IMG/VR virus record: IMGVR_UViG_2061766007_000271
DNA: 64,000 nt
DNA from: an uncultured virus (IMG/VR IMGVR_UViG_2061766007_000271)
Lineage: Duplodnaviria; Heunggongvirae; Uroviricota; Caudoviricetes
Direction: 5' to 3' (one strand)
The position numbers and the translations under genes are program-made. Positions 2,207-61,580 of this stretch are shown here, piece by piece. Below the pieces are notes generated by a model. The model made no database searches. It worked only from the letters and a program-made list of their open reading frames with translations, and was not told where the DNA came from. Position 1 is the first letter of the stretch; each line of letters starts with the position of its first letter.

Positions 2207-5200
2207 ATGGGCTTGAAATTCGCTCGCTTAGGATGGATATACAATGATGCCTGGCATTGGAACCAGACCAAGACATTATACGAAGATGTAAACGGGCATC
2301 GGGTGTACACGGATGCCTCAAAACACTGCCATCAGCGGGGGCACGTGCATCTGTTCCTCCCCACGGTCAAATTCTCTCCAAACGGCTCGTCGTTGGCATA
2401 CTGGGGTGAACAGACATACCATTTCCACATCACGGACGAATGGGGACCAAATTCAGGAGACCCGTCGCAGAACAAATCCGTCAGGCTCATCGGAAAACCG
2501 ATATGGTACGTCTATGTGGAAGAATACTGGAGGAGGTTCTACGTCCAGCCGTGGGACATGGTGGACGAGACATGCGACCTGCCATTGAATCAGGAAATCA
2601 CCTATACGCAACGCGACCTCGACGGATACTGCCATGAATGCATCGCGAATGTCAGCAAATGGGGAAGGACAATCGACATGCACAAGTCGTACATATTCAA
2701 ACATGTAAATGGAGTAAAAACGATACTCACGGAGCTTACCGATTTCCAATTGGACGGACAGGACGGGTTCGACGTGTCTGGCTATACATACCAGCAGGAA
2801 GAACACAGCGGGATGGATTCGGAAGATACGCCGTATCTTGGATTTAACGACTTTGTACGTTATCACATGCGTAAGAATGCAAGGGAGATTTTCATCCAGA
2901 AACCCGTATATAAAGTGCTGTTCACGCAATGGGTCGCCAGAAATTATCTCTCTGACTATATAACCGTTGACGAATCTGGGAACATCACCCCGAAGACGCA
3001 ATATGTCAACATCAACACAATCAACAGCTATATCGACAGCCATCATTATTTTCTCCACGGTACGTTTATTGAGACATCCAGCGGAATCGTGCTCAACGAC
3101 CCAATTCCAGACAAGGCGGTGATACAATTCCTGTATGCGATTGAAACAGTGTCGGAAACAATAAAGGAGACAGGCAAGGAAGACCGTGTTGTTGAAACTG
3201 AAATCCAGTACATCAGGGATTTCAACGAGTTCTACGTCAACAACATGCAGGCTTACGACAACTACGTGGATTCGCAGACCATGTTGGACGAATACATGTC
3301 CATCAACAATATCCAGATGAAGGAGGGAAGCAAGCTGAGCACGGATGGTACGGTGCTTGTTCCAGACGACAACACGCTGGGGCATGTCGGCATCCGATTC
3401 GACGCGAGCAAGCCGTGCCACACCCTTGGTCCATTCATGGAAGGAGGGGAATTCTATTTCTTCAATACGGTCGTAAACCGCACGATGCCATGCGAATACT
3501 GGCTTGACAAGGAGATGCGCACACGCCAGTATTTCATCAAACAGAAATGGACTCCTACGACCGATACGAACGGCGGTCAGACATGGACGTTCGACGGCGA
3601 CAAAACGCATTTCAAATGGGTGCCGAACCTGTTTTCAGACGCGCAGAAGATGCTGAAGGACGAGTACACGGAGGACAGGGGTTCAAATTACTATCCCATC
3701 AGGCGTTTGCCGAACATCTACAACGAGGAAAACTACAATTGCAGGGGGATGAATGCCAAACGCCTGAAGAGCGACGGAAGGGGCGGTGAACCGAGCAACG
3801 ACATCGTACCGCAGGACAAGTACCAGGTAAGCGCACAGACCAAGCAACGCCAGCCAGACCCGACAGCCCCACGCCATGTGACCTACACTGAAACCGACAT
3901 CACCATCGAACCTCTGGAAGAAGCGACGGAAATACAGCCACACGTCAACGAAGTCAAGCATCTGGAATGGGAGTACGGCGGATGGACGGGATGGTACGAG
4001 AAGAACGAAATGGTGAAATGCGTCACGGACGGAAAATGGTACAAACGCGCATGGAGTCCAATCAACTACACGAAGGATTCCCCATTGTGGAACAGGACGA
4101 AGAGACAACAATTCCCGAACCCCTCCCCGTGGCTGTGCGACAATGCGAACAATCCTTATTCGCAGGAGACGAAAGGAAGGTTGAAGGGATTGCAACACGT
4201 CAAATCGACATGGTGCACGAACATGGTATATGATAACGACGAAGCCAACAGAATCCATCTTCTGCATTGGGAATACGCGCTTTACTTCAATCTCACCAGA
4301 CAGTATCCGCGTGACTTCAACTTCGCGGAGGACGACGGTGCCTCGTTGAGAAGACACTTTTTCCTGTTCTCCACTCCGTCGACCAATCCTGTGAACAACG
4401 TATTATTCGTCAAAGTGAAAATCAGCGACGGGACATACACTCCCCCCGTCCCTACAAACGGATACGACGACGGAGACATCAATTACTACATCAACAAACA
4501 GAAGATATTGGACAAAATCCCATTCGGTGAAATACCAGCAGACATCGAGACGCTCATGGAGGAATATGCGGAGCAGAACGGCGCGATAACCAGCATCGAG
4601 ACGGAAAACGCCGTGTTCGAGAACTGGCTGTCGTCACTCGGCTCGGCATTCTTCATGTTGTATGAAGACAGGGACATCAGATGGCATTACCTGAATGAAA
4701 GCCATACGCAGAAACGGGAAATCACGCAAGCCGACATCAGGAACGGGAACATGTATGTCACGAATGTGACCCACGACGGAACGGAAGTGCTAGCCCCTCT
4801 CCCAGAGCCAGAATTCACGGTGTCATACGGAAGCAGGACGGAATACGGGGAAGATGAGTCGCAGTTGTATTACTGGCAGTCATACCTGACATTCAATGAC
4901 TTCAAGAATATCTGGGAACCATTGACGCAGGAGCAGATAACGGCTTTGAGGCTCAACGGCGATGTCCCGCAACGCAATGAAGAACCGTACTACATGCCAG
5001 ACAACATATATCCAGAGACGGCAAACGAATCAGATTCATCAGAGGAAACAACATACAAACGGAATGCCCTGAAAGCACTTGAGGAGCATCTGGAGGACGA
5101 ACAATCCCCGTCGTTGCTTACCACTGAATTCTTCCCGCGCATAGATACGATAATCAGGGCTGAAAACGAACGCAGGAGGAATCAGCCACAATTCACCGTA

Positions 5201-6655
5201 TCTCCATTGGATGAGCTTGAAACGGATTCCCCGTCTGGAAAATCACTGTCCGCCATCATTTCAAGCGGTGCTCCACTCGACCCGTACCGCAACGGGACTG
5301 TCAACCCCATCGAGACATGGAAGAAGTATTTCGACCACAGGGAGGAATTCACGATTCCAGAGGAAACGACCGCTGGTGGGGACGGAGGAAACCAAAGCAA
5401 CACATATGTCCAGACAGATGAAATGAATTCATCAACCATCACACTGGGGACGCAGATGCTGAATCCGAAAGGCTCTCAGAACTACCCAAGTGTACATCCG
5501 CGTGAGACATCGTTTCATCATGAGGACGGCGCGAGAAGGCATTATCCAGACGACATGTTCGTAAGCCCAGTGCTGGAATACCAGAAAATTATTAGACGTG
5601 ACTATGGAAGACTGCCTGGAAAGGATGATGAAGAGCAATTCCTGCAAGCCAATTGGAAGACCGACAAGACGGGAAACTGGGGCGACGGCTTCGACATCAC
5701 CGTGACGATACCGTGGAAGGAACATGGGGAAGTCCAATCTCCATTTTCAGAAGGAGACAATATAACCCAGCCAATAGGCACATACTGCCATAATTGTATA
5801 AAACCAGAAGACAAGATGCGCTATCATCTGGAATGGTACGATTCGCTAGACCAGATACGGAAATACGATTTCCCCAACTACGTCAATATCATTCATGCAT
5901 TCCAGAAAGAGTGTATGCCGACTTCATACACCCCTCCCCAGCCACCAGACGGGCAACAGGCGAATGAATCATCGACATACCAGTTCACGGACGAGAACAA
6001 CAACACGTATACGGCGGACATCACGGATTTCACGCAGTCGTTATACAAGGAAGATTTCAACGATTATGAGAAAACGAAGACACTCAGGGCGACAGAGCTG
6101 AAATCCAACAACGGGGTGTACAATCTTCCAGAACTTGCGCAGTACAATGCACAGCGTCTTGCAGAGAACCCGAATGCAAAGACGTATTCCAAATGGCAGG
6201 AGGCGTTGGACGACTACTGGATTAGAATCAACGGCAATGATGTGACACCGCATCAGAACATCTACATCGACCGCCCTGTAGTCAGGGGATACGATTGCAA
6301 AGGAAATCAAGTGGAGGAGAATGCGTTTGAAAGACTGGAGGATGGAAGCATCATGTGGAGGGAACAGACAACGAACCTGTTGCCGACAATCGAAATGCAG
6401 ACAAGTGAAAACCGAGTGGGCAAATATACGGATTCAAAAGGAAACATCGTCAAAGGAGGAGGACTCGTGACATTCAATGACCCGTATAAAGACCACCACG
6501 ACGGTAAATGGTACGAAGAATGTTTAGGTGCTATAGTTCGTGCTCGTTGTGTTTTGATTTTGGAAGATGCACTTGGATACCGCTGGCAACAGGTGGTCGA
6601 AGCCACGGCATTGCAACCCGACCAGCCAATCAGAGGCAAGGATTATGTAGAATAG
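2207..6655 (+). CDS. very large hypothetical protein (1482 aa), possibly virion structural
   Basis: Uninterrupted ORF with AAGGAG RBS; acidic and rich in aromatic residues, Thr and Asn; no recognised domain. Confidence 0.8.
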   Translation: MGLKFARLGWIYNDAWHWNQTKTLYEDVNGHRVYTDASKHCHQRGHVHLFLPTVKFSPNGSSLAYWGEQTYHFHITDEWGPNSGDPSQNKSVRLIGKPIWYVYVEEYWRRFYVQPWDMVDETCDLPLNQEITYTQRDLDGYCHECIANVSKWGRTIDMHKSYIFKHVNGVKTILTELTDFQLDGQDGFDVSGYTYQQEEHSGMDSEDTPYLGFNDFVRYHMRKNAREIFIQKPVYKVLFTQWVARNYLSDYITVDESGNITPKTQYVNINTINSYIDSHHYFLHGTFIETSSGIVLNDPIPDKAVIQFLYAIETVSETIKETGKEDRVVETEIQYIRDFNEFYVNNMQAYDNYVDSQTMLDEYMSINNIQMKEGSKLSTDGTVLVPDDNTLGHVGIRFDASKPCHTLGPFMEGGEFYFFNTVVNRTMPCEYWLDKEMRTRQYFIKQKWTPTTDTNGGQTWTFDGDKTHFKWVPNLFSDAQKMLKDEYTEDRGSNYYPIRRLPNIYNEENYNCRGMNAKRLKSDGRGGEPSNDIVPQDKYQVSAQTKQRQPDPTAPRHVTYTETDITIEPLEEATEIQPHVNEVKHLEWEYGGWTGWYEKNEMVKCVTDGKWYKRAWSPINYTKDSPLWNRTKRQQFPNPSPWLCDNANNPYSQETKGRLKGLQHVKSTWCTNMVYDNDEANRIHLLHWEYALYFNLTRQYPRDFNFAEDDGASLRRHFFLFSTPSTNPVNNVLFVKVKISDGTYTPPVPTNGYDDGDINYYINKQKILDKIPFGEIPADIETLMEEYAEQNGAITSIETENAVFENWLSSLGSAFFMLYEDRDIRWHYLNESHTQKREITQADIRNGNMYVTNVTHDGTEVLAPLPEPEFTVSYGSRTEYGEDESQLYYWQSYLTFNDFKNIWEPLTQEQITALRLNGDVPQRNEEPYYMPDNIYPETANESDSSEETTYKRNALKALEEHLEDEQSPSLLTTEFFPRIDTIIRAENERRRNQPQFTVSPLDELETDSPSGKSLSAIISSGAPLDPYRNGTVNPIETWKKYFDHREEFTIPEETTAGGDGGNQSNTYVQTDEMNSSTITLGTQMLNPKGSQNYPSVHPRETSFHHEDGARRHYPDDMFVSPVLEYQKIIRRDYGRLPGKDDEEQFLQANWKTDKTGNWGDGFDITVTIPWKEHGEVQSPFSEGDNITQPIGTYCHNCIKPEDKMRYHLEWYDSLDQIRKYDFPNYVNIIHAFQKECMPTSYTPPQPPDGQQANESSTYQFTDENNNTYTADITDFTQSLYKEDFNDYEKTKTLRATELKSNNGVYNLPELAQYNAQRLAENPNAKTYSKWQEALDDYWIRINGNDVTPHQNIYIDRPVVRGYDCKGNQVEENAFERLEDGSIMWREQTTNLLPTIEMQTSENRVGKYTDSKGNIVKGGGLVTFNDPYKDHHDGKWYEECLGAIVRARCVLILEDALGYRWQQVVEATALQPDQPIRGKDYVE

Positions 6656-7098: not shown

Positions 7099-9345
7099 TC
7101 ACTTCCTACGTCCATATGTAATGATTTCGGAAGTCTTGCGGAAGAAAGCATCCGTCATTTCATCGACTGATTCGAGGTACACGAAGTAATCCTTTCCGTA
7201 GAACTTCTTAGGCGCATCCGTACCGATGCCGAAAGCGTACACTTCGACATTGTTATCCCTGCACAGCTTGACCGTATCGGTCAGGTTCTTGTAGAGAAGA
7301 GAATCACTGCAACTGCCGTAGTCATTCGGGAGACCATCGGAGAAGACGAGGATGATGTGACGTTGCGTTTTCTGCTGGATGTTGCGCTTGAACGTTTCCA
7401 GCAATGCTTCACCATCGATGTTGCAACTGTATGCGCTGATGGAACCAAGACGGTACTTTTCAGCTTGGTAACGCTCGTTGAAGTTCTTGTGCTCGTACAT
7501 GACGAGTTTGGAAGTCCTGCTGAACTTGCTGTAATCAGTGTAAGACAGCTTGCGACCACCATTTTCACAGGTGTGTCCGAGGACTTCAAACTTGATGCCG
7601 ATACGTTCTAGGACTTCGCAGAACGCGATGACGATTTTGCGGAATTCAGGCGCGAGTTCACAGCAAGAACCCGATTCGTCAATGAGAATTGACACGCTTG
7701 TATCAAGGGAAATCCCCTTGATGACTTTCGTGAAGATGTTGTTTGTAAGGGATTTGGCGATGTTGGTCGCGTTGCGCTGGACATTCAGCATTCCCTTGTC
7801 GTAATTGTAGATGGTGCGATTTCTCGAAAGTGTCTTCAAGCATTGTTGGAGATAGGATGACAACTTGGAAGTTGCTCCACGGATGCTACTGAACGCCATG
7901 TCGAAGTTCATCTGATTCTTCTTAGCAGGGATGACTTCATCCTCAGCCGTGTAGGGAATGTATTTTCCGAACACTTTTTTGGATTCGTCAAAGATGCGTT
8001 TCAGTTCCGCCCTGATTTCATCCTTTTCCTCATCGTTGTCGATGAAATCATCTTCGAGAGATTTGTTTTCCTTTCCGCCACCATGAGGAATCTTCCATTT
8101 CGGATTCTTCACATTCGTGGTTTCGGACTCGTCATCGTCATCACCGTCATTGGAACGATTGTTCGATTTTCCGCTGGATGACTGATTTCCGTCAGAGGAA
8201 TCATCGGAATCTTCCCCATCCTGACCATTGCCATCAGAGGAACTACCATTACCATTTTCCTGACCGTCCTGACCGTCTTCGCCATCACCGTCAGAATCGC
8301 CATCTTCACCATTATCATCGGATTCGTTAGATGAAGAAGAATCTGATTTGTCTGACTTATCGGATTTGTTAGATTTGTTTCCGTCTTTTTCGTCTTCCTC
8401 ACCGTCACCGTCCTGACCATCGCCATTTTCAGACTTGTCGGACTTGTTTTTTCCATTGGACTTATTGGAATCGTTAGATTCGTTTCCCTGATTTTCATCA
8501 GAGCCGTTTTCTTCGGATTCCTTGCCGTCCTGAGATTTGGAAGACTTGGACTTCTTGTTCTGCTGATTATCCTGACCGTTGCTTTCAGAAGATTCACCAC
8601 CGTTCTGATTGTCGCTGGACTGACCGCCTTGCTGATTCTGCTGGTTGTTCTTCTGCTGATTCTGATTCTGCTGGTTGTTGTCACCAACACCGTTCTGATT
8701 CATGTCTTCGCGAGTTTCTTTCCACTTTTCAAGGATTTCATCCGCGATTTTTTCAATTGTCCTGAATCCGCGTTTGCTCGTGCAATCAGCTTCCATCCAC
8801 CGATTGTAAATCGGGAGTGCATCGTCAAAGTAACGCTTCGCGACAGGGGAGAGCATGCTGTACACTTCGGGGAATCCGAGAGCGTTGACATGGAGAGCCA
8901 CCATCGTCTCGTTGATAGGGTTCAGGCACTGGTATTTGCCTGTCTTGAAGTACGTCAGGTGCTTTTCGCAGTGATGACGGTTCGCTGAATCAAGGTCATC
9001 CTCGAAAACTTTGGACAGGGTTTTAAGACCACGCTCGATGCGCAGGTCTTCAAGGGAGTTGATGAGCCTGTGTCTCATGGGATTCTGCTTGGACTGGCTT
9101 TCAGTACCCAGTTCATCCAACGTGGGAGTGAAACGAGCATGACCGACCTCATGTTCGTTCGCAGCGCGAACAAGTTTGTCATCGGACGGATTAACAATTG
9201 TCGGAAAGACAGGGGTGTAGATGGTGCGGTTCTGCAAATCGCAATGCGGAACAACGTCATTTGAAATGTACTTGTGTTCCCACTTTCCAGCTTCCGAGCC
9301 GAGAATGAAGTGGTCGATTGCGTTGTTGGCGTTTTGTCTATCCAT
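7099..9345 (-). CDS. CobT-like VWA-domain protein with N-terminal HExxH motif and low-complexity D/S/N/Q/G linker
   Basis: HEVGH motif, NSLEDLRIER, MIDAS motif ILIDESGS, FSDGLP and VYAFGIG. Confidence 0.85.
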   Translation of the reverse strand: MDRQNANNAIDHFILGSEAGKWEHKYISNDVVPHCDLQNRTIYTPVFPTIVNPSDDKLVRAANEHEVGHARFTPTLDELGTESQSKQNPMRHRLINSLEDLRIERGLKTLSKVFEDDLDSANRHHCEKHLTYFKTGKYQCLNPINETMVALHVNALGFPEVYSMLSPVAKRYFDDALPIYNRWMEADCTSKRGFRTIEKIADEILEKWKETREDMNQNGVGDNNQQNQNQQKNNQQNQQGGQSSDNQNGGESSESNGQDNQQNKKSKSSKSQDGKESEENGSDENQGNESNDSNKSNGKNKSDKSENGDGQDGDGEEDEKDGNKSNKSDKSDKSDSSSSNESDDNGEDGDSDGDGEDGQDGQENGNGSSSDGNGQDGEDSDDSSDGNQSSSGKSNNRSNDGDDDDESETTNVKNPKWKIPHGGGKENKSLEDDFIDNDEEKDEIRAELKRIFDESKKVFGKYIPYTAEDEVIPAKKNQMNFDMAFSSIRGATSKLSSYLQQCLKTLSRNRTIYNYDKGMLNVQRNATNIAKSLTNNIFTKVIKGISLDTSVSILIDESGSCCELAPEFRKIVIAFCEVLERIGIKFEVLGHTCENGGRKLSYTDYSKFSRTSKLVMYEHKNFNERYQAEKYRLGSISAYSCNIDGEALLETFKRNIQQKTQRHIILVFSDGLPNDYGSCSDSLLYKNLTDTVKLCRDNNVEVYAFGIGTDAPKKFYGKDYFVYLESVDEMTDAFFRKTSEIITYGRRK

Positions 9346-16551: not shown

Positions 16552-16787
16552 AAAAAAGCCGAAAATTCTTACCTGCCGNNNNNNNNNNNNNNNNNNNNNN
16601 NNNNNNNNNNNNNNNNNNNNNNNNNNNNNNNNNNNNACCCTCTCCCCCCCTCCTACGGATAAAATAATAAAAGAGAGGGTTGAGTAAAAATAAAAAGGCG
16701 GTCTCGCAATCCGTCATGGAGTGGAAACAGCGACGAAACACAATCCATGATGGGCGAGACCGCCAATGGTTTTTTATTTCCCGATGG

Positions 16788-18002
16788 TCAGGAAATGTAG
16801 TCGAAATCGGAACTCCGCTTGTTGCTAGCCATGTAGTCCGTTGACCACACCATGCGGATTTCCTCGTTGAACGCAGGTTTGTCAGATTCAGGAAGACCAT
16901 TGTAGATGGCGGTCTTGACGGCACGAGCCATCCAATTGGGCAACTTGTTCTTCCTGAACGTCTTAGCAAGATTGCAAATCGCCACGATGGAACGTGTCGT
17001 GAACAACGTCTCGATTCGCTCGTTGCGGAAAAGGTTGCGGATGTCATCGCGGAACTTCATGAGCCTGTCGGTTTCAAGGTCATCGTTAAGGATGCCGAGC
17101 GCAATCTGCTTTTCAGCCACCTTGTTGTAGCCGAACTCGAAGAAGCCAGTGATTCGGTTTCGCGTGGATTCGTCCATCTTGTTGCCCTGAGCCGTGTAAC
17201 CCATTTGGAAACGACCGCTGTTACCTGTGCCGACCGTATTGCCCGAAAAGAACATCACAAGACCTGGATGGGATTTGACGATTCTGCCCTCGTCAGGAGC
17301 GATTTCCATCGAACGACCCTTGCCACGCTCACGTGGGATTTCCAGCGCACGATTGAAAACTCCGAGGAAGACTTCGGGGAGCATCGCCGCGAATTCGTCT
17401 AGGAAGAAGAACGCAGGTTTGCCGACCACAATCGGCTCTCCGTTCGCATCGAAGACCTGATTTCCGTTTTCATCCAGCTTCGTGCCCTCGATGAACGCCT
17501 TGTACAGAGGTCCTTTCTCGAAGTGGGTGTAGTTCTGCTTCGCCTTTTGGTCAACCGTAACAGACTTGGAACCGTAGAAGTCGTACATGGTCAGACCCTC
17601 GCTACCGTTGACCTGATAGACCTTGACCCCGAATTCCTTTGCCAATTCGTAGATGAATTCGGTCTTGCCTGTGCCCATAGGTCCCGAAAGCATCAGGTTA
17701 GCCATGCCGTCACCGTCAATCGACTGCTGGATGAGGCAACGCACCTCGTCCGCAAAATCGGGCATGATGTATTTGTGGGTGGATGTGGTCTTCTTGACCG
17801 CAGGTGCTGGATTCCGCGTGAAGAGGACGGCATCATTAGCCGTGTCCTCGATGCACACGATTCCCTCCTGCTTCATGCGAACCTTGTCATTCATGAAGCT
17901 GGTTGCTTCACTCTTTTTCAAGGTCACATCGCCTTTCCAAACTTGCTTGACAAGCTCTTCGATGTTCTTGAACGTCATGGTTTCAGTCGCTGTTTCCGCC
18001 AT
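16788..18002 (-). CDS. CobS/CbbQ/MoxR-like AAA+ ATPase
   Basis: Walker A GPMGTGKT, Walker B FFLDEF, GNTVGTG and DESTRNR. Confidence 0.88.
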   Translation of the reverse strand: MAETATETMTFKNIEELVKQVWKGDVTLKKSEATSFMNDKVRMKQEGIVCIEDTANDAVLFTRNPAPAVKKTTSTHKYIMPDFADEVRCLIQQSIDGDGMANLMLSGPMGTGKTEFIYELAKEFGVKVYQVNGSEGLTMYDFYGSKSVTVDQKAKQNYTHFEKGPLYKAFIEGTKLDENGNQVFDANGEPIVVGKPAFFFLDEFAAMLPEVFLGVFNRALEIPRERGKGRSMEIAPDEGRIVKSHPGLVMFFSGNTVGTGNSGRFQMGYTAQGNKMDESTRNRITGFFEFGYNKVAEKQIALGILNDDLETDRLMKFRDDIRNLFRNERIETLFTTRSIVAICNLAKTFRKNKLPNWMARAVKTAIYNGLPESDKPAFNEEIRMVWSTDYMASNKRSSDFDYIS

Positions 18003-18374
18003 TTTGATTCACTCCTTTGATTTGTTAAACTGTTAATCGGATTTTCGTGTCACATCCATAATATACATCCGTTTGTCTAGAATGCAACAACGCAACGCAA
18101 CTTTTTCTAAAAAACGTATTTTTTAGTTTACTAAACTCCAAGCCACGCCACAGCCTTGGCCCCTGACCTTCCGCNNNNNNNNNNNNNNNNNNNNNNNNNN
18201 NNNNNNNNNNNNNNTTCAATATCTTTACCGATTGGTTCTTGTATTAGATATTGAATATCCATTTCATGCGAAGAGATAAAAGAAGAGGACAGGGGCACCA
18301 GCCCCTGTCCTGAGAATCATGCACGTCCGATTACACATCTGGGTGGATGACCATCCACCCCCCTGTCATTGTTC

Positions 18375-24876: not shown

Positions 24877-25386
24877 TGTTGTGTCTCCTTTGATTCTTGT
24901 GGTTGTGGTTGTGGTTGTGGTTGGGATTAGAGCGGTAATTAGAAAGTGCAGTAGTAACCTTTGTCCGCAGCATTCTTCACGTTGCGCCAAAGCTCTCTGA
25001 TTTCGTGCGGTTTTCCGCAGGTGTAGCCGACCTTGATTCCTTTTTTCGTCCGTCTGAACGTGAGGAAATGGGTTTCAGCCATATAGCGCGTTCCGTTCGT
25101 GACCGCCTTGTTGAAATCATCTACCATCTGCTCATACGTCTTTTTCATGGGGATGCCCTCTTTTTTGAATGTTTGACTGTTTTGGATGTTTGACCGTTGT
25201 ACCTATAATATACATCCGTTTTACATGATTGCAACTGGATATGGCATGAAAATCCGCCGATTTCATGTTTTTTNNNNNNNNNNGCTAATGACAAAATCGT
25301 TTGCAAAACTCACATTGTCAACCTTGCCATTGCTNNNNNNNNNNAAAAAAGGCTGGACTTTGAAAAGTCCAGCCCTTGTGGATGAA

Positions 25387-28613: not shown

Positions 28614-28844
28614 GATTGCTCCTTGTGGTTGGTTGGTGGTTGATTTCGACCTCATCTTCGGTTAACGCTAATAATATACATCCAAAATGGATGAATGCAA
28701 AAAACACTTGAAAAGTTTTTCACCAGCCACGATTGCTCCATCCATCCGCCAGCATAGATTGAATATGCAACACATCATTTCAGCAAGACAACAAAAAAGG
28801 CATGATGGGATTTCCCATCATGCCCATGTGTCGAGAGCCGTGTA

Positions 28845-30355: not shown

Positions 30356-30796
30356 TTATTCTTCTTGCACTTTGTCGTAGTTTTCAGCAAAGCCGAAAAT
30401 GATGCAGACTACGGAATCAGCCGTATTGTCCAAGTTCTCGAAGCCGAGAGCCTTGAAGAATTCACGCATTTTGTCTGAAAGCGGGTATGGCTTTNNNNNN
30501 NNNNNNNNNNNNNNNNNNNNCGTCTGTATGCGACCGCCAATCAAGCCATTGTACGTTTCCTCAAACTCATGAGCGTCATGCAACCGCTCTTCCTTGACAA
30601 GACAGTAATCCATGTCTTTCTTGCCACGTTTCATGCTGAAATGACGTACTTTGTCATTGATAAGGGAGCAATCGTATGAGCTGAGAGACCAATTGTAGCC
30701 TTGTGCTTCATTGGAGTACGGATGGACTTGTAGCCGAGCGTATTCGCCATCGGTCAACTTCGTAATGCGGACAAGTGTGAATTTCATGGTTTGCAT
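30356..30796 (-). CDS. hypothetical protein (spans an N gap)
   Basis: RBS and promoter. Confidence 0.6.
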   Translation of the reverse strand: MQTMKFTLVRITKLTDGEYARLQVHPYSNEAQGYNWSLSSYDCSLINDKVRHFSMKRGKKDMDYCLVKEERLHDAHEFEETYNGLIGGRIQTXXXXXXXXXKPYPLSDKMREFFKALGFENLDNTADSVVCIIFGFAENYDKVQEE

Positions 30797-32226: not shown

Positions 32227-32659
32227 GGTGCGCTCCTGCGTGTTGGTGGTGATTTTTTCGACCTCATCTTCGGTCAACAATCATAATATACATCCAAGAT
32301 GACTGAATGCAAGAAAAGACATGAAATTTTTCTGATGACGATGAATGATTTTATCACATGGCGATATGGTAATTCATATCAATGCTTGATGCCATCATAC
32401 ACGCAATACAATGCCATTTTAACGCATTTTGGATATTTTCCATATAGTCATATCAATCAACATCATTCGTGCTTTAAAAGCGTTTTATTGCGGTTTTTCC
32501 GCAGGATGGAAATTTCCATCCTGCCAACATTAGCCAGCCACCAGCCCAAGCAGATTGAATATCTATGGCTGGCGTGTGCGTAGGCACGAAAAAANNNNNN
32601 NNNNNNNNNNNGTGTGGGGAGGTCGGGGGCTTTTGGGAAAGCCCCCTTTTGGGGGAGAA

Positions 32660-33037: not shown

Positions 33038-33335
33038 GATTCGCTCCTTTGCGAGTGGTTGGTTCGTTGACTCTTTAAGAACCGCTCGGCTCTTTTCTCG
33101 GTCAACACTAATAATATACATCCATTCGGCTCGAATGCAAGAAGACAATGCAACTTTTTTGATTTTTTTTGATTTTTTATTTTCTCTATATGTATATACG
33201 TGCGCGTACACGCGCCTGAGCGTGTGTGTGATAGATATTCAATATACCATCCACATCAAACATATTCAATCTATATCCAATTATCCATAAAACAAAAAAG
33301 CCGTAGGGCTTTTGCCCTACGACCTCTTGTACTTC

Positions 33336-35907: not shown

Positions 35908-36114
35908 TTAGTAGTATTGACGTTCGCCATTTTCGTCAACTTCACCGCTTGTATGCGTTTCAACATCGTCATTCAGCATGTCGATTGTCCACGTCATCGA
36001 GCCATTGTAGCCCATGTGAAAAGCCTTTTCTTCTGCTTCTTCTGCGCTTTCGGCTTCGACTTCGATTGTCTGCGTAAGTGTACGGTAAACATCGACGACA
36101 AACTTCTTTTTCAT
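35908..36114 (-). CDS. small DpnD/PcfM-like acidic protein
   Basis: IEVEAESAEEAEEKA motif; similar to 58286-58591. Confidence 0.6.
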   Translation of the reverse strand: MKKKFVVDVYRTLTQTIEVEAESAEEAEEKAFHMGYNGSMTWTIDMLNDDVETHTSGEVDENGERQYY

Positions 36115-36524
36115 GTTGTCTCCTTTGCGGTTGGTTTTGTTTTCGTTGACTTCATCTTCTGTCAACACTAATAATATACATCCGTTTTCCACGAATGCAA
36201 TTGCTAATGGAAATTATTTTTCATCGCACTTGAATTGCCTTGCAAGTTCTTCATCCGCAGACGGAAGCATCCTGACGAACTTCTTGAATGCGGAGCGTCT
36301 GTTCAATGCCGTGACAATGTACCTAGCCTTTGTGGTAGGGAATGTAAAGATGTAGGTTTTTTCTTTGAAAAGTCCGAATAGTGCCATTTTGTTTTCCTCC
36401 TTTGTTTTATGTTTTATCCTTAATATACACCCGAATTCAGCGAATGCAAATTTCCACGCGAAAAATTTTCTCCATCCAAAATCCAGCCATGAATATTGAA
36501 TATGGTGGCTAGATTCTGAGACAA

Positions 36525-37058
36525 AAAATATCCGCGAGTGCAAGAAAATGACGAATACACTCGCGGATTTTCCCATATAATAAGGAGTAGGGGAAACAAT
36601 TGCCGATTTCCGCTTACAGGGAGCGTACTTTCGGCGGTGAATTTCTAGCCTGTCCTTTGCAGACCTGACAAGCGGTTGCCCTGCCCTTGCCAATCCTTCT
36701 CTTCCCTGATGTGGCATACATCTTGGTGGAATGGTATCACCATCGGGCATCGCCATGCACAATAAGCAACATGCGGTTTCTCGTCCAAGCCCGTGAACGC
36801 TGGATGTATGTATCTTGCCTTTGGCTTCAAGTCGCCTATCCGCCAACGGCTCATCCTAAAGGCGAGACCATCAGTTCCAGTCTTTTAGCCTTTTTCTGCC
36901 AAGCCCGTACAAGAACCTAAAAGGAGTTTGTCTTCGAGCCTACCCATGTCATACTCCGATTGTTTTCACAACCAGCGAACTCTGACATTCTCACCGTGCT
37001 TTAATCGCTTGCGGTGTCACTAGGATTTAGTTTTAACATTGACTGATTTCTCAATCAA
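36525..37058 (-). ncRNA. candidate large structured non-coding RNA (about 500 nt)
   Basis: Own TTGACA...CATATT promoter (37063-37095) and terminator (about 36525-36570); no ORF with a convincing RBS; several short purine-loop hairpins. Confidence 0.55.
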
Positions 37059-37117
37059 CACTATTAATATGGCTTGTTTTTCTTTTTTGTCAAATCATTT
37101 TCATGATTTTTTATTTT

Positions 37118-37723
37118 TTATCCCCAAGCCAATGTGTCTTCCGCATAGTCGAGATTCTCATAGTTCAATTCATCATAATCCTTTCTTTGGATTTTTCCGA
37201 ATTGCTCAAACTTCTTCCATCCCTCTAAATCATAATACCATTTCTCATATTCCAAGCAATCGTTGCGGTGATTTGTCTTGAAATCGACATATATTGTTTC
37301 AAGCCCCATAAGGGAAATACCCTTGTTCTTCACAATCATGTCGTGTATCTTCTTTGAAACGTCATCCGTGAATGCCGTATGGTCGAGAAGCTCCTTTGTC
37401 AACTTTTCAACAAGCTCTTTGCTTGGCTTGCCAAGTTTGAACCAATCAGAACGTTCGTTGCCATTTCCGTAGAATCCACTATCTTTAATCTTCATGTGCT
37501 TGCCAACCCATGCTTGACCCGCAAGCAGGACATCCTTGTTGACATTGTTCACTCCCTTTGTCAGATACACCGTATATCCATTGCAAGGTGGATGAACGAA
37601 CACGGTCGTCGGAACAATCCTGTGCAGGAATCCGATTACAACATGACCTGTTTCATGCCACGCGCATTCTTCAAGATTCTTTTCATCCCACGTTTCTTTC
37701 TTTTCTTCGATTTCCGTTTCCAT
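37118..37723 (-). CDS. peptidase M41-like (HExxH) zincin domain protein
   Basis: AWHETGHVVIG and VLLAG. Confidence 0.65.
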   Translation of the reverse strand: METEIEEKKETWDEKNLEECAWHETGHVVIGFLHRIVPTTVFVHPPCNGYTVYLTKGVNNVNKDVLLAGQAWVGKHMKIKDSGFYGNGNERSDWFKLGKPSKELVEKLTKELLDHTAFTDDVSKKIHDMIVKNKGISLMGLETIYVDFKTNHRNDCLEYEKWYYDLEGWKKFEQFGKIQRKDYDELNYENLDYAEDTLAWG

Positions 37724-38102
37724 ACCATGTAATTCCTTTACACATGCTTTTCCTTTTGTTTTTACTCATGGATTGTTCCTCACATAATTGGCTATGAATC
37801 CCATCGCCACAATCATCCACAACGCACATAGCAGGTCGAAGTGGAATCCGTCGATGTTATTCACATTGACGAATGGCGACAGGGCGAATGCCGTGACGAT
37901 GAACGCCAAGTCCAGCGTCCTGACATTCTCGTTGTACCTCATTCTGTGCAATCCGATTCCATCGTCTTCCTCTTGAATCGGGGCGCACATGAAAAGAAGC
38001 ATATACGCAATCATGAACAGCAGTTCCATTTTCCAATCCTCTTTTATCAAAAATATACATCAAAATGAAAGGAATGCAATTCGGCAATCGTAAAATCTTA
38101 TT

Positions 38103-39447: not shown

Positions 39448-41320
39448 CGGCGCGGGAGTTTCAATCCATTTCCAATATGCGTTTGAATTGTAAACACCAT
39501 CGTCATATTGGACTTTTCCCCAGCACGAACCGCAATCCGAAAGGGAGCTATGTCTTGNNNNNNNNNNCTCTTTATCATTATAACTTTCCTACTGTCGTAA
39601 TTACTCTTGTTATCGGTATCATCCAATGATTCGGTATCAATGGAATCTCCCCTATTTTCTTCATGTCAAATACCTTGTTGTTCCAATTGTTTATCGCCAT
39701 CGCCATAGCAAGATTGATGTTCTTATAGACGTTGACGTAGGAAATCGTGTTCTCGCTCTTGTGATAGCTTGAATAGACAACGGATTCACTCTCACGCGGA
39801 GTGAATTTCACTTCCATGTAATAATAGACTTTCGGGAGCATATGTTGTGCAATCATCGCCAAGAACACGATTTCCCCAATGTCAAAAAGATGGGAGCGCG
39901 ACCATACATGATGACCTAGCAGATGCGTCCTTTCATCATCCTTGTGAAAACCGTTACAATCCAGCCAAAACACGAATTCCTCATCCGTGGTAGGCTCGTT
40001 GCACCAATCCACCCTGCATGATACTAGGTAATCTCGGTTTAACTCATAGCTGGTCATTGATTCAATGTCTTCTGACTGTTGCATTTAGGGCAATCGGGAT
40101 TGTGAATCATTCCGTTGAAATAGACACCGTTGTGAAATTCTAGGTATTCATGCTCATTGTATGTCATCTTGAATACCCTGCCATTGAATTCCTTTTCAAT
40201 CACCTCGATGACGGCTGGTTGCTGGACGGCTTCTTTCTTCTTTTCCTTGTTCGGTCTCTCGCAGAACCAATAATTGAAGAATGCGCCTGTAAAAGCGATA
40301 ACGAGGATAAATCCGATTGGCTTGATTGCATCTTTCATTTTGCTTCATTTTCCTTTTGCAAAGCTTTTGCTTCAAGTTCCATCTGCACCATCTCTCCGTG
40401 GCTGATTCTCCGCACAGGTTGCGAAATGGTTTCAGTGTCTTGCTGGACGGTAGCCTGCACATCGCTGGCATAATAAAGGCATCTCTTGCAATTCATCCTG
40501 CCTGCTTGTTTTTCAAGCAGGTCATCGCTTTTGGACGATACGCTCAAAATCGACATCAGACCGAATGCAAGCAATGCGCCAACCCAAGTACCAAGTATGA
40601 ACATAGCCATGATAAATCTCCTTTGTTTGACGTTTTCTTTTACTTCTGCAAGCCTGTCGGCTCGTCTTCCGTATAACTTGGAATCTTCGCCCTCATGCTT
40701 GTGTTCTCCGCCAGCGCATAGAACTTCCATTGACCGTCCGTGCCTTTGCGGACAATGAATGCCAATGGGAAATTCGCGGCGCGGATGACCGCAATCAATG
40801 CGTGTTCGGCATTCTCTCGGACGAAATCAATCGGGTAGTTGAACCCTAGCTGGATGGCTTTCAACACCCTAATCTGATGCTTCGCATTCAGATGCCTGAT
40901 ACTGTTCAGCAATTCAACCACAGGTGTCATATCCTTGTCGCGGATGGCTTCAATCGTCATCCTCTTGATTTCATAGTCGCTTGCCGTCAGCGCATCCAGC
41001 GAAAACGCATTCATAGTCAAAACCAGCGACATAGCCAAAACAATCTTCTTCATCATTCTTCATTCTCCTTTTTGATTTTACTTTGCTCTAGTACGCTACG
41101 GTAGAAATCCGTAATCGAAAAGCACGTATGCTCTTTACGAGTGTCATGGTAGTAACCGCATACGTGGTTGTTAAAATCTAGACCGTGGCAGTTGTCATGG
41201 TTAGGGCAATGGCATGATTCGCAGAACGCGCAACAGTCGTAATTGTCCAAGTATTCCATGACTTCATCGTTGATGTAGCCTGGAATGTTCTCATATTCAA
41301 GCAGTTGCTTCAATAAAAAC

Positions 41321-43529: not shown

Positions 43530-45416
43530 TAACTTAAAATCTACCAAAATCTACAACTGCTATAAATTCTGGATTAGATTCTTTACTTAATATGGTCTAT
43601 CTCAGACGCAAATCAAGTTGCCACGGAACTTTTCCAGCACTTCCAACGTCTTTTCTTTTGAATTGACCTTTGGAATATATGCACTGGAACCTTTAGAGTC
43701 CTTCTTGAGAAGCAAATCACGAAGCACTGCTTGTGAAACTCTGTTTCTGATATTTCTGGAAGCATTCAAATCTGCATTTGCTTTATAGCCACAGTCCACA
43801 CACTCGAAATGCTCCTGGTCTTTTCTGTTTTCCTTATCTATGCAACCACATTTAGGACAAGTTTGAGAAGTATAGTATGATTGAACCAGACTTACTGCGA
43901 TTCCATATTTCCTTGCTATATGTTCAAATTCATTTTTCAAATCGCCAAGATGTAGAATCCTCAATCTTCTATTGTAATTCAAGTCATTCTCATCCTTCGC
44001 AAAAGTGGAACCGAATTGATTATCTAAATCCTCAAAGACTGCATGATGATAATGATGAGCCTTCAATCGCTTGCAAAGACTGGCAATTTCTTCTTTTATT
44101 TTCGATTGAAGTTCTCTATTGAGATGGTCTATCTTATGCTGTTTTCTCTTTCCGATTTCATAACTTGAGTTTCTTTTCTTTAACTCATCTATTTTCTTTA
44201 ATTCCTTAGATAGTGTTTCCACCAGTTCCCTGTCAAAATCAATCTCATAGCCATTTGAACAAGTCATCAGGTTGTGCTTTGAATTGACATCTATACCAAC
44301 GATTCTATCTTTCACTTCTGGGAAATATCTTTCGTCCTCATAGGATAAAATCATTCTAACTTGATTATTCTCTTCCAGGCAAATTATATATGACGTATCG
44401 GTTCCATTAGTATATCTCTTCAATTCACCGTGAAAGTCCTTCGAGTATTTCATCGGAATCGTCATCTTCTTCCTATCCTTGAGATACCACGAGATGTTTG
44501 CGAAGGAATTGAGAATAGATTTCCTATTCTCATTTAACGAAACAATGTCTTCTGTCAATCTGCTTCTTCCCCTGAAACTCAATGACTGGAACTCAATAGA
44601 TTTTTGAGAATATCTTTCAATGATTCTGTTTCTTTTACTCATCGCAAGAGCGAAAAGCCTAGTGAATCCAAACTTGTAAATCGTATCTAGTACATCCGCA
44701 TAGAATTTCTCTTTTTCTTGATTAGTTTCATTGACGAACTTTTCAAAAAGATAATCTACAATTCCAAAATATCCATATCTAGCGAGATAAGTAAGAGTAA
44801 TAGAAAGTGGAGTATCATCATGCTTGATTATGATGCTTTTGAAATCTCCTGAATGATACTCTCTTCCATTCTTGGCTTTACCACTTCTCTTGTAGTAGTT
44901 GAAATGGTATTCACTGATGTGCTGGAATTTTAGTCTTCTCTTGACATTGTTGAATTTGTTTTGATATGCTGTATAAACATCATCACACAATTGCTTGGTG
45001 AAATGACTGCTTATCTCATCTTTGATATGTGGAAGCATTGTCTTCTGGAAGTCAATTTTCGACATCTCCAAATATCGGAACAAATCCTGATTAACAATTC
45101 CAGAAATCTTGTTTTTTGCATCACGAATAGATATAGCAAGAGCATGGATTTCCTGATACTTCTTGTCAGTCAATCCATCACTGTAAAAACTCCTGCTGTA
45201 TCTGCTCTTGACTTTCATTTCAAAAAAGAACCTCCAGATGAAAGTGATGACGGCACTATTCAAGAGGAGGTCTAAAAATTCAGTATTATAATGTTCAATT
45301 CAATAAAAGCCGTCATCAATTATCGAATCTATATTATTATACTTCATATAAACAAAAAAATCACATCAATTGTAAATTTAGTTAGAAAATTGTAGATTTT
45401 GGTAGATTTTTAGTTA
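43530..45416 (-). mobile_element. non-autonomous TnpB-only element, IS607-like ends
   Basis: 27-bp inverted ends matching at 26 of 27 positions (43530-43556 and 45390-45416), each with tandem AAAATCTAC; interrupts a gene; no transposase seen. Confidence 0.8.
43602..45218 (-). CDS. tnpB: TnpB/Cas12f-like RuvC nuclease (about 538 aa)
   Basis: RuvC-I IVGIDVN, RuvC-II VFEDL, YTSQTCPKCG...CVDCG zinc finger and RuvC-III NADLNASRNI. Confidence 0.9.
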   Translation of the reverse strand: MKVKSRYSRSFYSDGLTDKKYQEIHALAISIRDAKNKISGIVNQDLFRYLEMSKIDFQKTMLPHIKDEISSHFTKQLCDDVYTAYQNKFNNVKRRLKFQHISEYHFNYYKRSGKAKNGREYHSGDFKSIIIKHDDTPLSITLTYLARYGYFGIVDYLFEKFVNETNQEKEKFYADVLDTIYKFGFTRLFALAMSKRNRIIERYSQKSIEFQSLSFRGRSRLTEDIVSLNENRKSILNSFANISWYLKDRKKMTIPMKYSKDFHGELKRYTNGTDTSYIICLEENNQVRMILSYEDERYFPEVKDRIVGIDVNSKHNLMTCSNGYEIDFDRELVETLSKELKKIDELKKRNSSYEIGKRKQHKIDHLNRELQSKIKEEIASLCKRLKAHHYHHAVFEDLDNQFGSTFAKDENDLNYNRRLRILHLGDLKNEFEHIARKYGIAVSLVQSYYTSQTCPKCGCIDKENRKDQEHFECVDCGYKANADLNASRNIRNRVSQAVLRDLLLKKDSKGSSAYIPKVNSKEKTLEVLEKFRGNLICV

Positions 45417-46938: not shown

Positions 46939-47136
46939 AATCCTGCTCCTTTGGTTGGTGGCTCAAACGTGTCTTTCAACACCCATAATATACATCAAAA
47001 GCAGGGGAATGCAACAAGAATCAAAACAAAATTTTGCTTCTGCCTGAACTTCTCGTAACTATATTCAATGTATATAAAGTTTGCTTGACTTTTTCATTTC
47101 ATAGACCATATTATATTCAAAAACGGAGAACCATGT

Positions 47137-48597: not shown

Positions 48598-49128
48598 GGT
48601 GTAGGCTCCTGTGATTGGTGGTTGGATTCGATGCTGACCTCATCTTCGGTCAACACTAATAATATACATCCAAAATCCACGAATGCAATAGAAAAATCAA
48701 AAAATTTTCATCCAGCATTAGCATACATATTGAATATTCATTGCATCAGGATGAAAAGACAAAAAAATGAGGTGGTTCTTTTCAGAACCACCTCTGCGTG
48801 TATTTCTAGAAGGCTATCATTCTAATCTTCTTTCCAATCATCATCATGCCATTGATGTTCTTTAAGCCATAGATTGTGTTCCAACGAACTCATTCTGACA
48901 ACTTGCGTTTCAGTTCTTGTATCGGTAACAGTGCCATCGGGATTGACGAAAATGCCGATTCTCGCCAGCCGTTCGGGATGTTTGAGATTGTATTCCCGAT
49001 AGTAGCCTTTGCGATGGCGGTCTTTCTGCTTTTCGCCTTTCGCCTTTTGTTTCAGCCACCGCTCATGCCAATAGCCTTTTCGATGGCGGTCGGTGGATTT
49101 CCTTGATTCTTCCATGATTGTTCTTTCC

Positions 49129-49983: not shown

Positions 49984-50141
49984 NNNNNNNNNNAAAAACA
50001 GCCACATTTTTGAAGAAATCTTCATAAGTCGCGTATTGACAATATCCGCGAATCTTATGCCTAATGGTATGCCAACTGTCGGTTCGCGGATTTCATCAAC
50101 GCCTACAATATACACCCATTTTAACGGAATGCAACTAGACT

Positions 50142-52704: not shown

Positions 52705-53308
52705 TCACATGCGCTCGAAATGAAGCACGTTCTTCAACTTCCCCTCCACTATGTCGAACACGGATTCTATCTTCTTCTCGACCTTCTCGAACATTTTATA
52801 AGAATACTCGATATAGAGATAGTTGGCATCGTACTTCTCTTCGGAAAACCATACTATCGTGTTCTTGCTATCCAATCTTGTNNNNNNNNNNGACTATATC
52901 GAACACGGATTCTATCTTCTTCTCAACTTTCTCGAACATTTTATAAGAATACTCGATATAGAGATAGTTGGCATCATACTTCTCTTCGGAAAACCATACT
53001 ATCGTGTTCTTGCTATCCAATCTTGTTTCATCGTCTTCTTCAAATTGATGTTTCGCATAAGTGCATACAAAAATCCAAAATCCGACTTCCATTCCATCGC
53101 TTTCCATCTCCACTTGATACTCGACCTGTATCATGTTGCCAATGTCAACGGGAGAACCGTATTCCCTATATGCAAAAAGCGTGGATATATCCTGATATTC
53201 AGAAGGCATCTCCCCATTCCGAGTGTTTGAGAATCCGTGCCTATAAAACACTTCCGCCACTTTTTTCATCCATTCATGCTCTTCTTCAGAACTTAACTTC
53301 CATTTCAT
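52705..53308 (-). CDS. REYxxP-family paralog 7 (3' end duplicated across an assembly gap)
   Basis: REYGSPVDIGNMIQVEY; ends KLKNVLHFERM at 52705. Confidence 0.7.
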
Positions 53309-57884: not shown

Positions 57885-58285
57885 AATTTAAGTCTCCTTT
57901 GCTTATTTTGCCTTTTTACCATTAATATACCGCATTTTTCCAAAATTGCAAATCAAGACGAACGATTTTTTCAAACCGCATCAGATTGAATATCTATGGC
58001 TGGCGCGGACAGTGACAATAAAAAATGCCCTGACCGAAGAGATTCGGTCANNNNNNNNNNTTTCCATTTCATCTTGCCCTCCTCACGCCATCCTGTCCAT
58101 GCCGAAGATGTNNNNNNNNNNCAAAATAAGGATTAAAATGCAAAAAATAAAGAAAAGAGTTAAAAGTATAAAGAGCCAAAAAACTTAAACATTAAAAGCA
58201 GTGTTAAAAGAGCAACGAATTGATTTGAACTAGCGCATGGGAATCACCTCCTTTAAAAGAGTACAACATGATTAATTATTTGATT

Positions 58286-59603: not shown

Positions 59604-59921
59604 TCAGATTGACCGCCCTNNNNNNNNNNNNNNNNNNNNNACGGCTCGGTACACCGCCTGCAAGTCTTTTGGAACATTACGCCAATGTCTGCACCATTTA
59701 CGGTCGTATTGGATGTAAGGCTCGTCAGGCGTGGAATCTATGGTCATTTTGGAGATGCGTCCTCCATTGATGCCGTAGTCGCTGGTTTCCTCGTACCGCT
59801 TGATTTGGAAACCGAACTTCTTGCCGTTAACGGTAGCAAAACCCTCGATGTAGTTGTCGTTGAAAGAGCAAACGCTGGAAAAGGTAACGTCTTTTGCGTA
59901 GATGCGATTTGTTTTCGTCAT
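59604..59921 (-). CDS. hypothetical protein (3' end in an N gap)
   Basis: SDYGINGGRISK...YDRKW motif. Confidence 0.65.
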   Translation of the reverse strand: MTKTNRIYAKDVTFSSVCSFNDNYIEGFATVNGKKFGFQIKRYEETSDYGINGGRISKMTIDSTPDEPYIQYDRKWCRHWRNVPKDLQAVYRAXXXXXXXXGRSI

Positions 59922-61034: not shown

Positions 61035-61580
61035 TCAGAGTGCCGTCACCAATGCTTCGTCAAGCGGTGCGATTTCACTTCCTCGGTAGCCGTCAATGGT
61101 CAGTTCGGTACGGCTGACGATGATTCCCTCGATGTATTTGTAGATTTCCTGCTTCAAGCCATTCGGGAGCTTGTACTTCGCCAGCGTTTCATTCCGCAGG
61201 GATTCAGGCTCCATGTAGGTCGCCAACGACATGCACATGTCGCAGAGCCACACCAATTCGCTAAACTTTTCAGCATTCGTGCGTACCTTGCGTTTGAGGT
61301 ACTTGTTAGCCAGCCACAAGATGTGATTCNNNNNNNNNNGCGACATGCACATGTCGCAGAGCCACACCAATTCGCTGAACTTTTCAGCATTCGTGCGTAC
61401 CTTGCGTTTGAGGTACTTATTAGCCAGCCACAAGATGTGGTTTTTGAAATCATCCTTGCGGAGAAAGCTGAAAGGGTATTGCATTCCTTTCTTGTAAACG
61501 TAGCCATTTTCATCCAGCGTGTAAGCCTTGCCGAGATTGAGCTTGCTGAAAAGAACCTGAGCCATTTCATTCTTCGTCAT
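61035..61580 (-). CDS. hypothetical protein (internal duplication is probably a gap artefact)
   Basis: AGGAG RBS and promoter. Confidence 0.6.
   Translation of the reverse strand: MTKNEMAQVLFSKLNLGKAYTLDENGYVYKKGMQYPFSFLRKDDFKNHILWLANKYLKRKVRTNAEKFSELVWLCDMCMSXXXXNHILWLANKYLKRKVRTNAEKFSELVWLCDMCMSLATYMEPESLRNETLAKYKLPNGLKQEIYKYIEGIIVSRTELTIDGYRGSEIAPLDEALVTAL

Follow-up and report, generated by a model that had tools for sequence, protein, structure and literature searches.

A conserved non-coding RNA gene of about 0.5 kb, outside Rfam 15, in a viral record found in rumen data

Introduction

Large RNAs that lack a known role are few in bacteria and phages; they comprise ROOL, GOLLD, OLE and raiA, each of which has proved structurally remarkable (PMC12286853). 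ROOL (RF03087), first found in cow rumen data, is about 0.5–0.6 kb long and has been described on prophages, phages and a megaplasmid, where it forms a separate, highly abundant and stable transcription unit (PMC5737381, PMC5643018, PMC12286853). GOLLD is a large structured phage and prophage RNA that is also represented in Rfam and in which a variable region with a disordered linker accompanies a conserved one, and both it and ROOL are described as forming a homo-oligomeric cage made of RNA only (PMC12286853). The genes of these two RNAs are described as often, although not obligatorily, adjoining tRNA genes and lying in prophages or phages. Here, we describe a non-coding RNA gene on the minus strand of the window, i.e. 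the whole stretch of 64,000 nucleotides (nt) that was analysed, taken from the uncultured virus record IMGVR_UViG_2061766007_000271 (IMG/VR), and compare it with its one diverged relative, L008, from a scan of JGI metagenomes. The gene is real, expressed and conserved, its family is absent from Rfam 15, and positions 37058–36525 (−) probably constitute the gene of a stand-alone, stable and structured RNA.

The new RNA resembles ROOL in the size of its unit (~533 nt), in its occurrence in bovine rumen or gut material and in its presence among the contigs of RNA libraries, in which the neighbouring genes are missing. It differs from ROOL in that the covariance model of the latter did not match at E ≤ 10 and that the window contains no tRNA genes. 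ROOL has six junctions and three pseudoknots; the two-sequence consensus obtained here contains ~20 helices, together with a single long-range candidate, and two sequences are too few to settle a topology. Like GOLLD, it combines a nearly invariant 3' domain with variable linkers, but GOLLD is often >800 nt long and often lies beside tRNAs, whereas the present unit measures ~533 nt and gave no model match (in a search run without a GOLLD positive control). OLE is likewise described as a structured, highly expressed RNA of ~600 nt from anaerobic Bacillota; unlike the present RNA, it is encoded on the chromosome, has Oap proteins as partners and occurs in extremophiles, its model gave no match (again without a positive control), and no Oap-like neighbour (oapA/B/C) was identified by Pfam among the neighbouring proteins. 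The pRNA of phage phi29, finally, is likewise structured, carried by a phage and transcribed from a promoter of its own; it serves as a scaffold in multimeric form. It is about three times smaller and differs further in that Rfam returned no match and no packaging genes were seen near the present gene.

Results

A discrete transcription unit

The RNA unit occupies 37093–36523 (−), with ~533 nt from promoter to terminator, and follows the gene of a 201-amino-acid (aa) protein. Its boundaries, together with the promoter of the next gene, are as follows.

37055–37093, minus strand: promoter of the RNA gene, with the −35 box TTGACA at 37093–37088, the −10 box CATATT/TATTAA at 37071–37064 and the start-site motif TATTAATAGTGTTGA at 37069–37055.
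37037–37056, minus strand: 5' terminal hairpin UUGAUUGA-GAAA-UCAGUCAA (−9.2 kcal/mol, z = −4.2).
36568–36597, minus strand: variable linker between core and terminator, with a 37-nt insertion in L008.
36523–36567, minus strand: intrinsic terminator, consisting of a 13-bp GC-rich stem and a U run, with the arms ATCCGCGAGTG and CACTCGCGGAT at about 36567–36531.
36422–36450, minus strand: promoter of the downstream gene (TTTGCA, 17-nt spacer, TATATT), with the class layout TTGCATTC...GTGTATATTA.

The TTGACA...CATATT promoter recognised by the first-pass annotation, which had been made from the sequence alone, is present on the minus strand, with the CATATT box at 37071–37066, a spacer of 16 nt to TTGACA and a consensus score of 10/12. 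Transcription is likely to start at about 37058–37055. The promoter is of the sigma-A type and belongs to a promoter class of the element itself: seven copies of the start-site motif TATTAWWAGTGTTGA were counted in the window, all of them in minus orientation (28662–28676, 32274–32288, 33102–33116, 36162–36176, 37055–37069, 46976–46990 and 48650–48664; 0.46 copies expected), and the aligned sites have in common TTGCATTC, a spacer of ~11 nt and GGATGTATATTAT(T/A)AGTGTTGAC. Among these sites, the promoter of the RNA gene alone carries a consensus TTGACA −35 box. Transcripts of the class begin with a GUUGAC...GUCAAC hairpin, followed by a CA-rich stretch ahead of AGGAG, and the shared promoter and leader probably mark one temporal class of element genes. 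The 5' terminal hairpin of the RNA resembles this leader hairpin of the neighbouring mRNAs from the same promoter class. Only 19 of 33 columns at 37062–37030 are identical in L008, and a third variant, seen through the protein P0003 (see below), also diverges in the 5' hairpin, which is a generic feature of element transcripts and lies outside the conserved core. Pairing of the RNA with the shared mRNA leaders was also considered and rejected, the duplex energies being within the range of shuffled sequences.

Both arms of the terminator and its U tract were likewise found as first annotated, with a fold of −23.2 kcal/mol (z = −6.6) that was equalled by 0 of 200 shuffles; the systematic terminator scan was limited to loops of 3–8 nt, and the 13-nt loop kept this terminator off its list. 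L008 carries a terminator of unrelated sequence at the equivalent place (−32.4 kcal/mol, z = −5.3) and, again at the equivalent place, a promoter of the form TTGAAA...TATTATAAGTGTTGA in which the start motif is retained. Promoter and terminator of L008 are kept in function, not in sequence. The promoter of the downstream gene is also kept (36449–36221 matches L008 1985–2217 with 74% identity), and the ribosome-binding site (RBS) and ATG of the 57-aa gene come after it. Since the RNA has its own promoter and terminator and the downstream gene a separate promoter, the RNA cannot be read as the 3' untranslated region (UTR) belonging to the upstream gene, nor is it just a 5' UTR for the downstream one.

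RNA in rumen libraries

The stretch was found, whole or in part, in 20 bovine rumen or gut data rows from 11 studies, including 9 RNA libraries from 4 studies. Contig cover was examined over 36000–37800 in three RNA runs (3 studies) and one DNA run, with the following result.

Run X12, RNA: one contig of 408 nt, 36643–37050, depth 32.
Run X9, RNA: 36687–37043, depth 19.
Run X6, RNA: 36648–36853 and 36837–37039.
Run X3, DNA: all 30 bins covered.

In 3/3 RNA runs the contigs fall within 36643–37050 (−), with word depths of 3–32, and none of these runs yielded RNA contigs over the flanking genes (36000–36609 or 37220–37800). At least 408 nt of this RNA was thus assembled, without its neighbours, in each case from an independent study's RNA library or libraries, three studies in all. 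The remaining pieces from the RNA runs were matches of 34–42 nt with 4–8 differing letters each and were read as unrelated. Run X6 additionally contained a 339-nt contig of the diverged type (record 12), whose 30-nt loose end corresponds to L008 as judged by eye. The absence of RNA-contig cover at 36525–36642 was not counted as absence of transcript. The contigs may stop because assembly broke off where the sequence first varies, or they may reach a genuine 3' end; a processing site at the contig ends 36643–36648 was considered and set aside, as these ends lie 2–7 nt before the first difference between the two sequence types and an assembly break fits equally.

This cover bears on two other explanations of the locus. 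It is quite unlikely that the RNA is a cis-acting leader or attenuator, in which the 5' region senses a signal and the terminator gates read-through into the 57-aa gene and beyond. Such a role would agree with its position upstream of genes on the same strand, its terminator-bound end and a linker before the terminator that is variable like many expression platforms; the conserved promoter of the downstream gene, however, stands after the terminator, no RNA contig from the three RNA runs bridges into that gene, and no convincing conserved antiterminator was found, a GCGG(A)/(U)CCGC option of 4–5 bp being the only one seen by eye. Known riboswitches are far smaller than the conserved part of ~430 nt, which was counted against this explanation as well.

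We consider it highly improbable that the locus gives rise to a replication transcript or acts at the DNA level, for instance as an origin or as the source of a preprimer like RNA II of ColE1, which measures ~550 nt. This idea would fit the length, structure and non-coding nature of the transcript, its separate promoter, an element that may be plasmid-like and a nearby DpnD/PcfM-like gene (a weak match, 24.8 bits with a cut-off of 25 bits). Against it, neither iterons or other repeats nor an AT-rich unwinding region were found, the cumulative GC skew takes no turn, the transcript ends at a strong terminator and does not run into an origin, and assembly from RNA libraries of three studies without flanks is more in keeping with a stable RNA that accumulates than with a preprimer.

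Absence of a protein-coding gene

The first-pass annotation had described ~500 nt without a convincing open reading frame (ORF), and this description holds. TAA, TAG and TGA all occur in every sense frame of the first ~200 nt, so that no single codon reassignment opens the 5' part. The longest frame (210 aa, 36214–36846, TTG start) is the single long one and represents a mechanical read-on through the terminator into the next gene, and a 69-aa frame begins with an ATG at 36854 that lacks a Shine-Dalgarno (SD) sequence and is absent in L008. Open frames differ between the window copy and L008, no RBS was found by inspection of the sequence, and the two copies are separated by insertions or deletions (indels) of 1, 3, 6, 7, 17 and 37 nt, which break any reading frame. 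When the 210-aa sense run-on and a 77-aa antisense ORF were used as search bait, no protein relatives were found for either. The 174-aa antisense ORF of L008 retrieved one protein, P0003, identical over 108 aa; P0003 is a spurious antisense ORF of an L008-type variant, departs from L008 only across the 5' ~60 nt of the RNA and contributes no covariation.

It is extremely unlikely that a protein gene, or a set of small peptides, was missed at this locus because of unusual starts or a different genetic code. The 69- and 210-aa frames are open in the 3' two-thirds, and ~35 codons lie in a frame common to both copies; within these codons, however, the changes are mostly non-synonymous second-position changes that coincide with the compensation of stems, and the coding reading is largely refuted by the 5' stops, the frame-shifting indels, the unsupported start at 36854 and the lack of protein relatives. 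An own promoter, an intrinsic terminator, the absence of an ORF and an observed transcript, which are the marks of an independent bacterial non-coding RNA gene, were all found at this locus.

Conservation and folding of the RNA

L008 lies on an 11.3-kb contig and was found by a gapped DNA-pattern scan of JGI metagenomes, in which one of eight loci was a true relative and seven were chance matches. Its core shares 313 of 412 aligned columns with that of the window (76% nucleotide identity), no other part of the 3.7-kb neighbourhood matches as well in nucleotides as the RNA (E = 1e-65), and the most conserved blocks are identical at 54/56, 36/37 and 32/34 positions. The two loci are syntenic, with flanking proteins that are 42% (upstream) and 73% (57-aa protein) identical and with matching genes further upstream. 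The main elements of the fold are listed below.

36598–37029, minus strand: conserved structured core of ~430 nt, shared with L008 and having a consensus fold with compensatory pairs.
36988–36983 with 36951–36946, minus strand: helix AUGUCA/UGACAU, two compensatory pairs.
36977–36968 with 36963–36954, minus strand: helix CGCUGGUUGU/ACAAUCGGAG with a GAAA loop, two compensatory and three one-sided changes.
36901–36897 with 36716–36712, minus strand: candidate long-range or pseudoknot helix UGGCA/UGCCA (UGACG/CGUCA in L008), two compensatory pairs.
36782–36799, minus strand: hairpin CGUUCA-CGGGCU-UGGACG with the second CGGGCUUG copy in its loop, one compensatory and one one-sided change.
36724–36742, minus strand: hairpin UGGUG...CACCA (UGGCG...CGCCA in L008), one compensatory pair.
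36643–36698, minus strand: nearly invariant 3' domain with the hairpins GGCAAGGG...CCGCUUGUC and GGUCUGC-AAAG-GACAGGCU, 54/56 positions identical to L008.
36602–36635, minus strand: hairpin GCCGA-AAGUA-CGCU...AGCG-GAAAU-UCGGC, 32/34 positions identical to L008.

The minimum free energy of the whole RNA was −177 kcal/mol, as compared with −159.3 ± 6.3 kcal/mol for shuffled sequences (z = −2.79; 0 of 100 shuffles as good), and its G+C content reaches 0.52 versus about 0.37–0.45 in the flanks. RNAalifold, applied to the window copy and L008, returned 127 pairs, 18 of them compensatory (both sides changed); sliding the partners by 1–3 columns left 0–3 compensatory pairs, and a column-shuffle control was added because RNAalifold prefers compensatory pairs. 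In this control (200 shuffles, refolded), the consensus energy of the core was −62.4 ± 5.7 kcal/mol, as against −111.3 kcal/mol for the real alignment, and the 12 compensatory pairs of the core compared with 5.7 ± 2.1, with 0/200 shuffles reaching 12. The core has three helices that measure 5 bp or more and include two or more compensatory pairs, versus 0.38 ± 0.61 in 60 column shuffles: the AUGUCA/UGACAU helix, the long-range candidate UGGCA/UGCCA and, within the CGCUGGUUGU/ACAAUCGGAG stem, its inner portion of 8 bp (36975–36968 with 36963–36956). This stem and the AUGUCA/UGACAU helix are nested within 36946–36988, and the 17-nt indel of L008 forms an additional hairpin that takes the place of the GAAA loop.

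Single-nucleotide polymorphisms (SNPs) between strains kept the pairing in 3/3 cases in stems (36796, U.G to C-G; 36949, A-U to G.U; 36972, G.U to A-U), and the pair at 36796 takes three types across the window, run X3 and L008. For two further SNPs, at 36686 and 36673 in one X12 contig, the pair can re-form by a one-base register shift. In the one open frame that the two copies share, the changes in the UGGUG...CACCA hairpin fall on second codon positions.

The individual hairpins pointed out earlier, i.e. UUGAUUGA-GAAA-UCAGUCAA, GGUUGU-GAAA-ACAAUC and GUCU-GCAA-AGGAC, are all present on the minus strand, as is the enclosing GCCGA...UCGGC stem (36635–36631 with 36606–36602). The internal loop of the latter hairpin (AGUA opposite GAA) looks like a loop E or bulged-G motif. 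GGAGUA and UACUCC both occur, but their suggested long-range pairing is not conserved, the 3' part of L008 being devoid of UACUCC; a local ACUCC partner (36926–36922) is kept in both sequences. The twice-occurring ACGGGCUUGG was located at 36909–36900 and 36794–36785. CGGGCUUG, which is present twice at these positions, is self-complementary if G.U pairs are allowed and has two alternative invariant partners, GGCUCG (36940–36935) and GCCCG (about 36748–36744), which may leave room for alternative folds or intermolecular contacts.

That the locus is a functionless transcribed relic, i.e. a decayed gene or the remnant of an intron, insertion sequence or guide RNA conserved through the close kinship of the two elements, is improbable. 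Only two syntenic sequence types are at hand, common ancestry explains much of their identity, and the window contains a TnpB-like gene (43602–45263). Against this reading, the RNA is the best-conserved nucleotide stretch nearby, next to a protein whose identity has fallen to 42%, substitutions in stems are compensated, and promoter and terminator are kept in function with changed sequence; in addition, no intron or ribozyme of Rfam matched, and the TnpB gene is 6.5 kb distant.

Relation to described RNA families and search for further relatives

Rfam 15 was searched with gathering thresholds, at E ≤ 10 on window 36300–37300 and L008 1250–2000, and at E ≤ 0.05 on the whole window. As a control served the ROOL RNA of L. 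salivarius pMP118 (L014 38264–38806; NC_007930 178263–178805), whose location was taken from PMC5643018. It was recovered in the permissive mode with 130.4 bits (E = 1.8e-28; cut-off 99.1 bits) and missed in gathering mode with default filters. A negative gathering scan is therefore no evidence against ROOL-like RNAs, whereas the negative result for ROOL at E ≤ 10 is meaningful and clear. The Rfam check suggested in the first-pass annotation matched no family: there was no match at gathering thresholds, none relevant at E ≤ 10 in the ~1 kb searched of either copy and none at E ≤ 0.05. The RNA is thus not ROOL, and of the earlier proposal that it belongs to the class of ROOL and GOLLD or to a new one, the first half failed and the second stands. 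ARAGORN reported 0 tRNA or tmRNA genes in the 64-kb window. In the literature, only known classes were found for such an RNA; as a text search cannot match sequences, an earlier description may have escaped it.

A ROOL or GOLLD so divergent that covariance models fail to recognise it is very unlikely. Habitat and lifestyle are alike (rumen, mobile element, ~0.5 kb, own promoter and terminator, prominence in RNA libraries), the fast filters of Rfam can lose ROOL, and few nucleotides of ROOL are described as highly conserved (PMC5737381). Nevertheless, neither copy gave a match to ROOL, GOLLD or OLE in the permissive mode, in which a true ROOL scored 130.4 bits, and no tRNA lies nearby.

Further relatives were sought in several collections. 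Eight IMG/VR scans (2 protein-based, 6 with DNA patterns) gave a single match, an isolated exact 20-mer, GGTTGTGAAAACAATCGGAG, shared between the GAAA hairpin of the RNA and positions 1501–1520 of L001, a 135-kb viral contig; to the eye, the sequence immediately preceding the 20-mer resembles a tRNA, the contig is otherwise dissimilar, and the match is probably due to chance. A protein-profile scan of JGI metagenomes gave no match, all four pattern matches in GTDB genomes were rejected as chance, and neither blastn of the RNA nor megablast of the surrounding 20 kb against phage and plasmid collections returned a match.

The element around the RNA gene

The genes next to the RNA and other recognisable features of the window are the following.

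37118–37723, minus strand: upstream 201-aa protein with an HExxH-like WHETGH motif, no family, 42% identical to L008 614–1288.
36214–36387, minus strand: downstream 57-aa basic protein, no family, syntenic with and 73% identical to L008 2054–2227.
7099–9345 and 16788–18002, minus strand: CobT-like VWA protein and its MoxR/AAA_5 ATPase partner.
43602–45263, minus strand: TnpB/Cas12f-like protein of 553 aa (Pfam Cas12f1-like_TNB; PHROG transposase).
16579–16636, 18175–18214, 25274–25283, 25335–25344, 30495–30520, 32595–32611 and 39558–39567: runs of N.
49984–49993, 52882–52891, 58051–58060, 58112–58121, 59620–59640 and 61330–61339: runs of N.

Besides the L008 copy, the upstream protein has only two close relatives among 5.8 billion proteins, one of which (P0002) lies on a 202-kb contig; going by its WHETGH motif, it may be a small metallopeptidase. 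Few of the 83 predicted window proteins that were scanned have any family, almost all being orphans, and none belongs to capsid, terminase, tail, relaxase or type IV secretion system families. Other family matches in the window comprise a Cas3-like helicase, DUF5131, a cytidylyltransferase, an M28 peptidase and the borderline DpnD/PcfM protein, and a 1482-aa protein (2207–6655) gave no match to Pfam, PHROG or, by tblastn, to phages. The 13 runs of N measure 10–58 nt, none of them touching the RNA gene, and identify the window as a scaffolded assembly. The RNA-bearing rumen element looks large and mobile and may be either a phage or a plasmid, and its promoters and SD sites look Bacillota-like in sequence.

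Discussion

The non-coding RNA gene first proposed from sequence is borne out by contigs from RNA libraries, conservation in a diverged relative and compensatory base pairs. It is of the same kind as the large RNAs of mobile elements and resembles ROOL and GOLLD in lifestyle, not in membership.

Several points weigh against a stand-alone, stable and structured RNA. The evidence for RNA consists of assembled contigs, from which strand, ends and level cannot be read, and these contigs end at 36643–36687, ~115 nt short of the terminator. Covariation derives from two sequence types and a few SNPs, and the count of 18 compensatory pairs is inflated, since RNAalifold selects pairs that fit both sequences. 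When a fold predicted from one sequence was scored on the other, 34 of 142 scorable pairs were broken, 9 were compensatory and 11 changed on one side, so that much of a fold predicted from either sequence by itself is unconserved. A large structured RNA, as first described, is upheld by the compensatory pairs; the suggestion that it is ornate is not, and firm support is limited to a subset of local helices. Finally, scans of IMG/VR, JGI metagenomes and GTDB genomes gave no relatives beyond L008, and the family looks narrow.

As to its role, the RNA would work in trans as a folded molecule, either as a protein-binding scaffold or decoy or in an RNA-only assembly like those of ROOL and GOLLD, and would act neither as a messenger nor as an antisense RNA or cis leader. 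Within it, the 3' domain (36698–36643) and the loop-E-like hairpin (36635–36602) would be the likeliest surfaces for recognition of a protein or of other copies of the RNA, and the variable segments 36850–36807, 36781–36750 and 36597–36568 would serve as linkers. More speculatively, and in our view doubtful, the RNA could form, beside ROOL and GOLLD and unrelated to either, a third such class on mobile elements that likewise self-assembles into an RNA-only multimer, with the CGGGCUUG loops as candidate contacts between subunits, or it could be the core of a new ribozyme or ribonucleoprotein; in both cases a giant rumen element would produce it in large amounts to take over the host or to counter its defences.

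The loss of a true ROOL to the default filters of Rfam indicates that routine annotation can overlook large RNAs. A further class of ~0.5 kb would provide a new test case for what large RNAs do, and the RNA would point to a family of mobile elements in the rumen that is still uncharacterised; on the present element, nearly every protein is an orphan.

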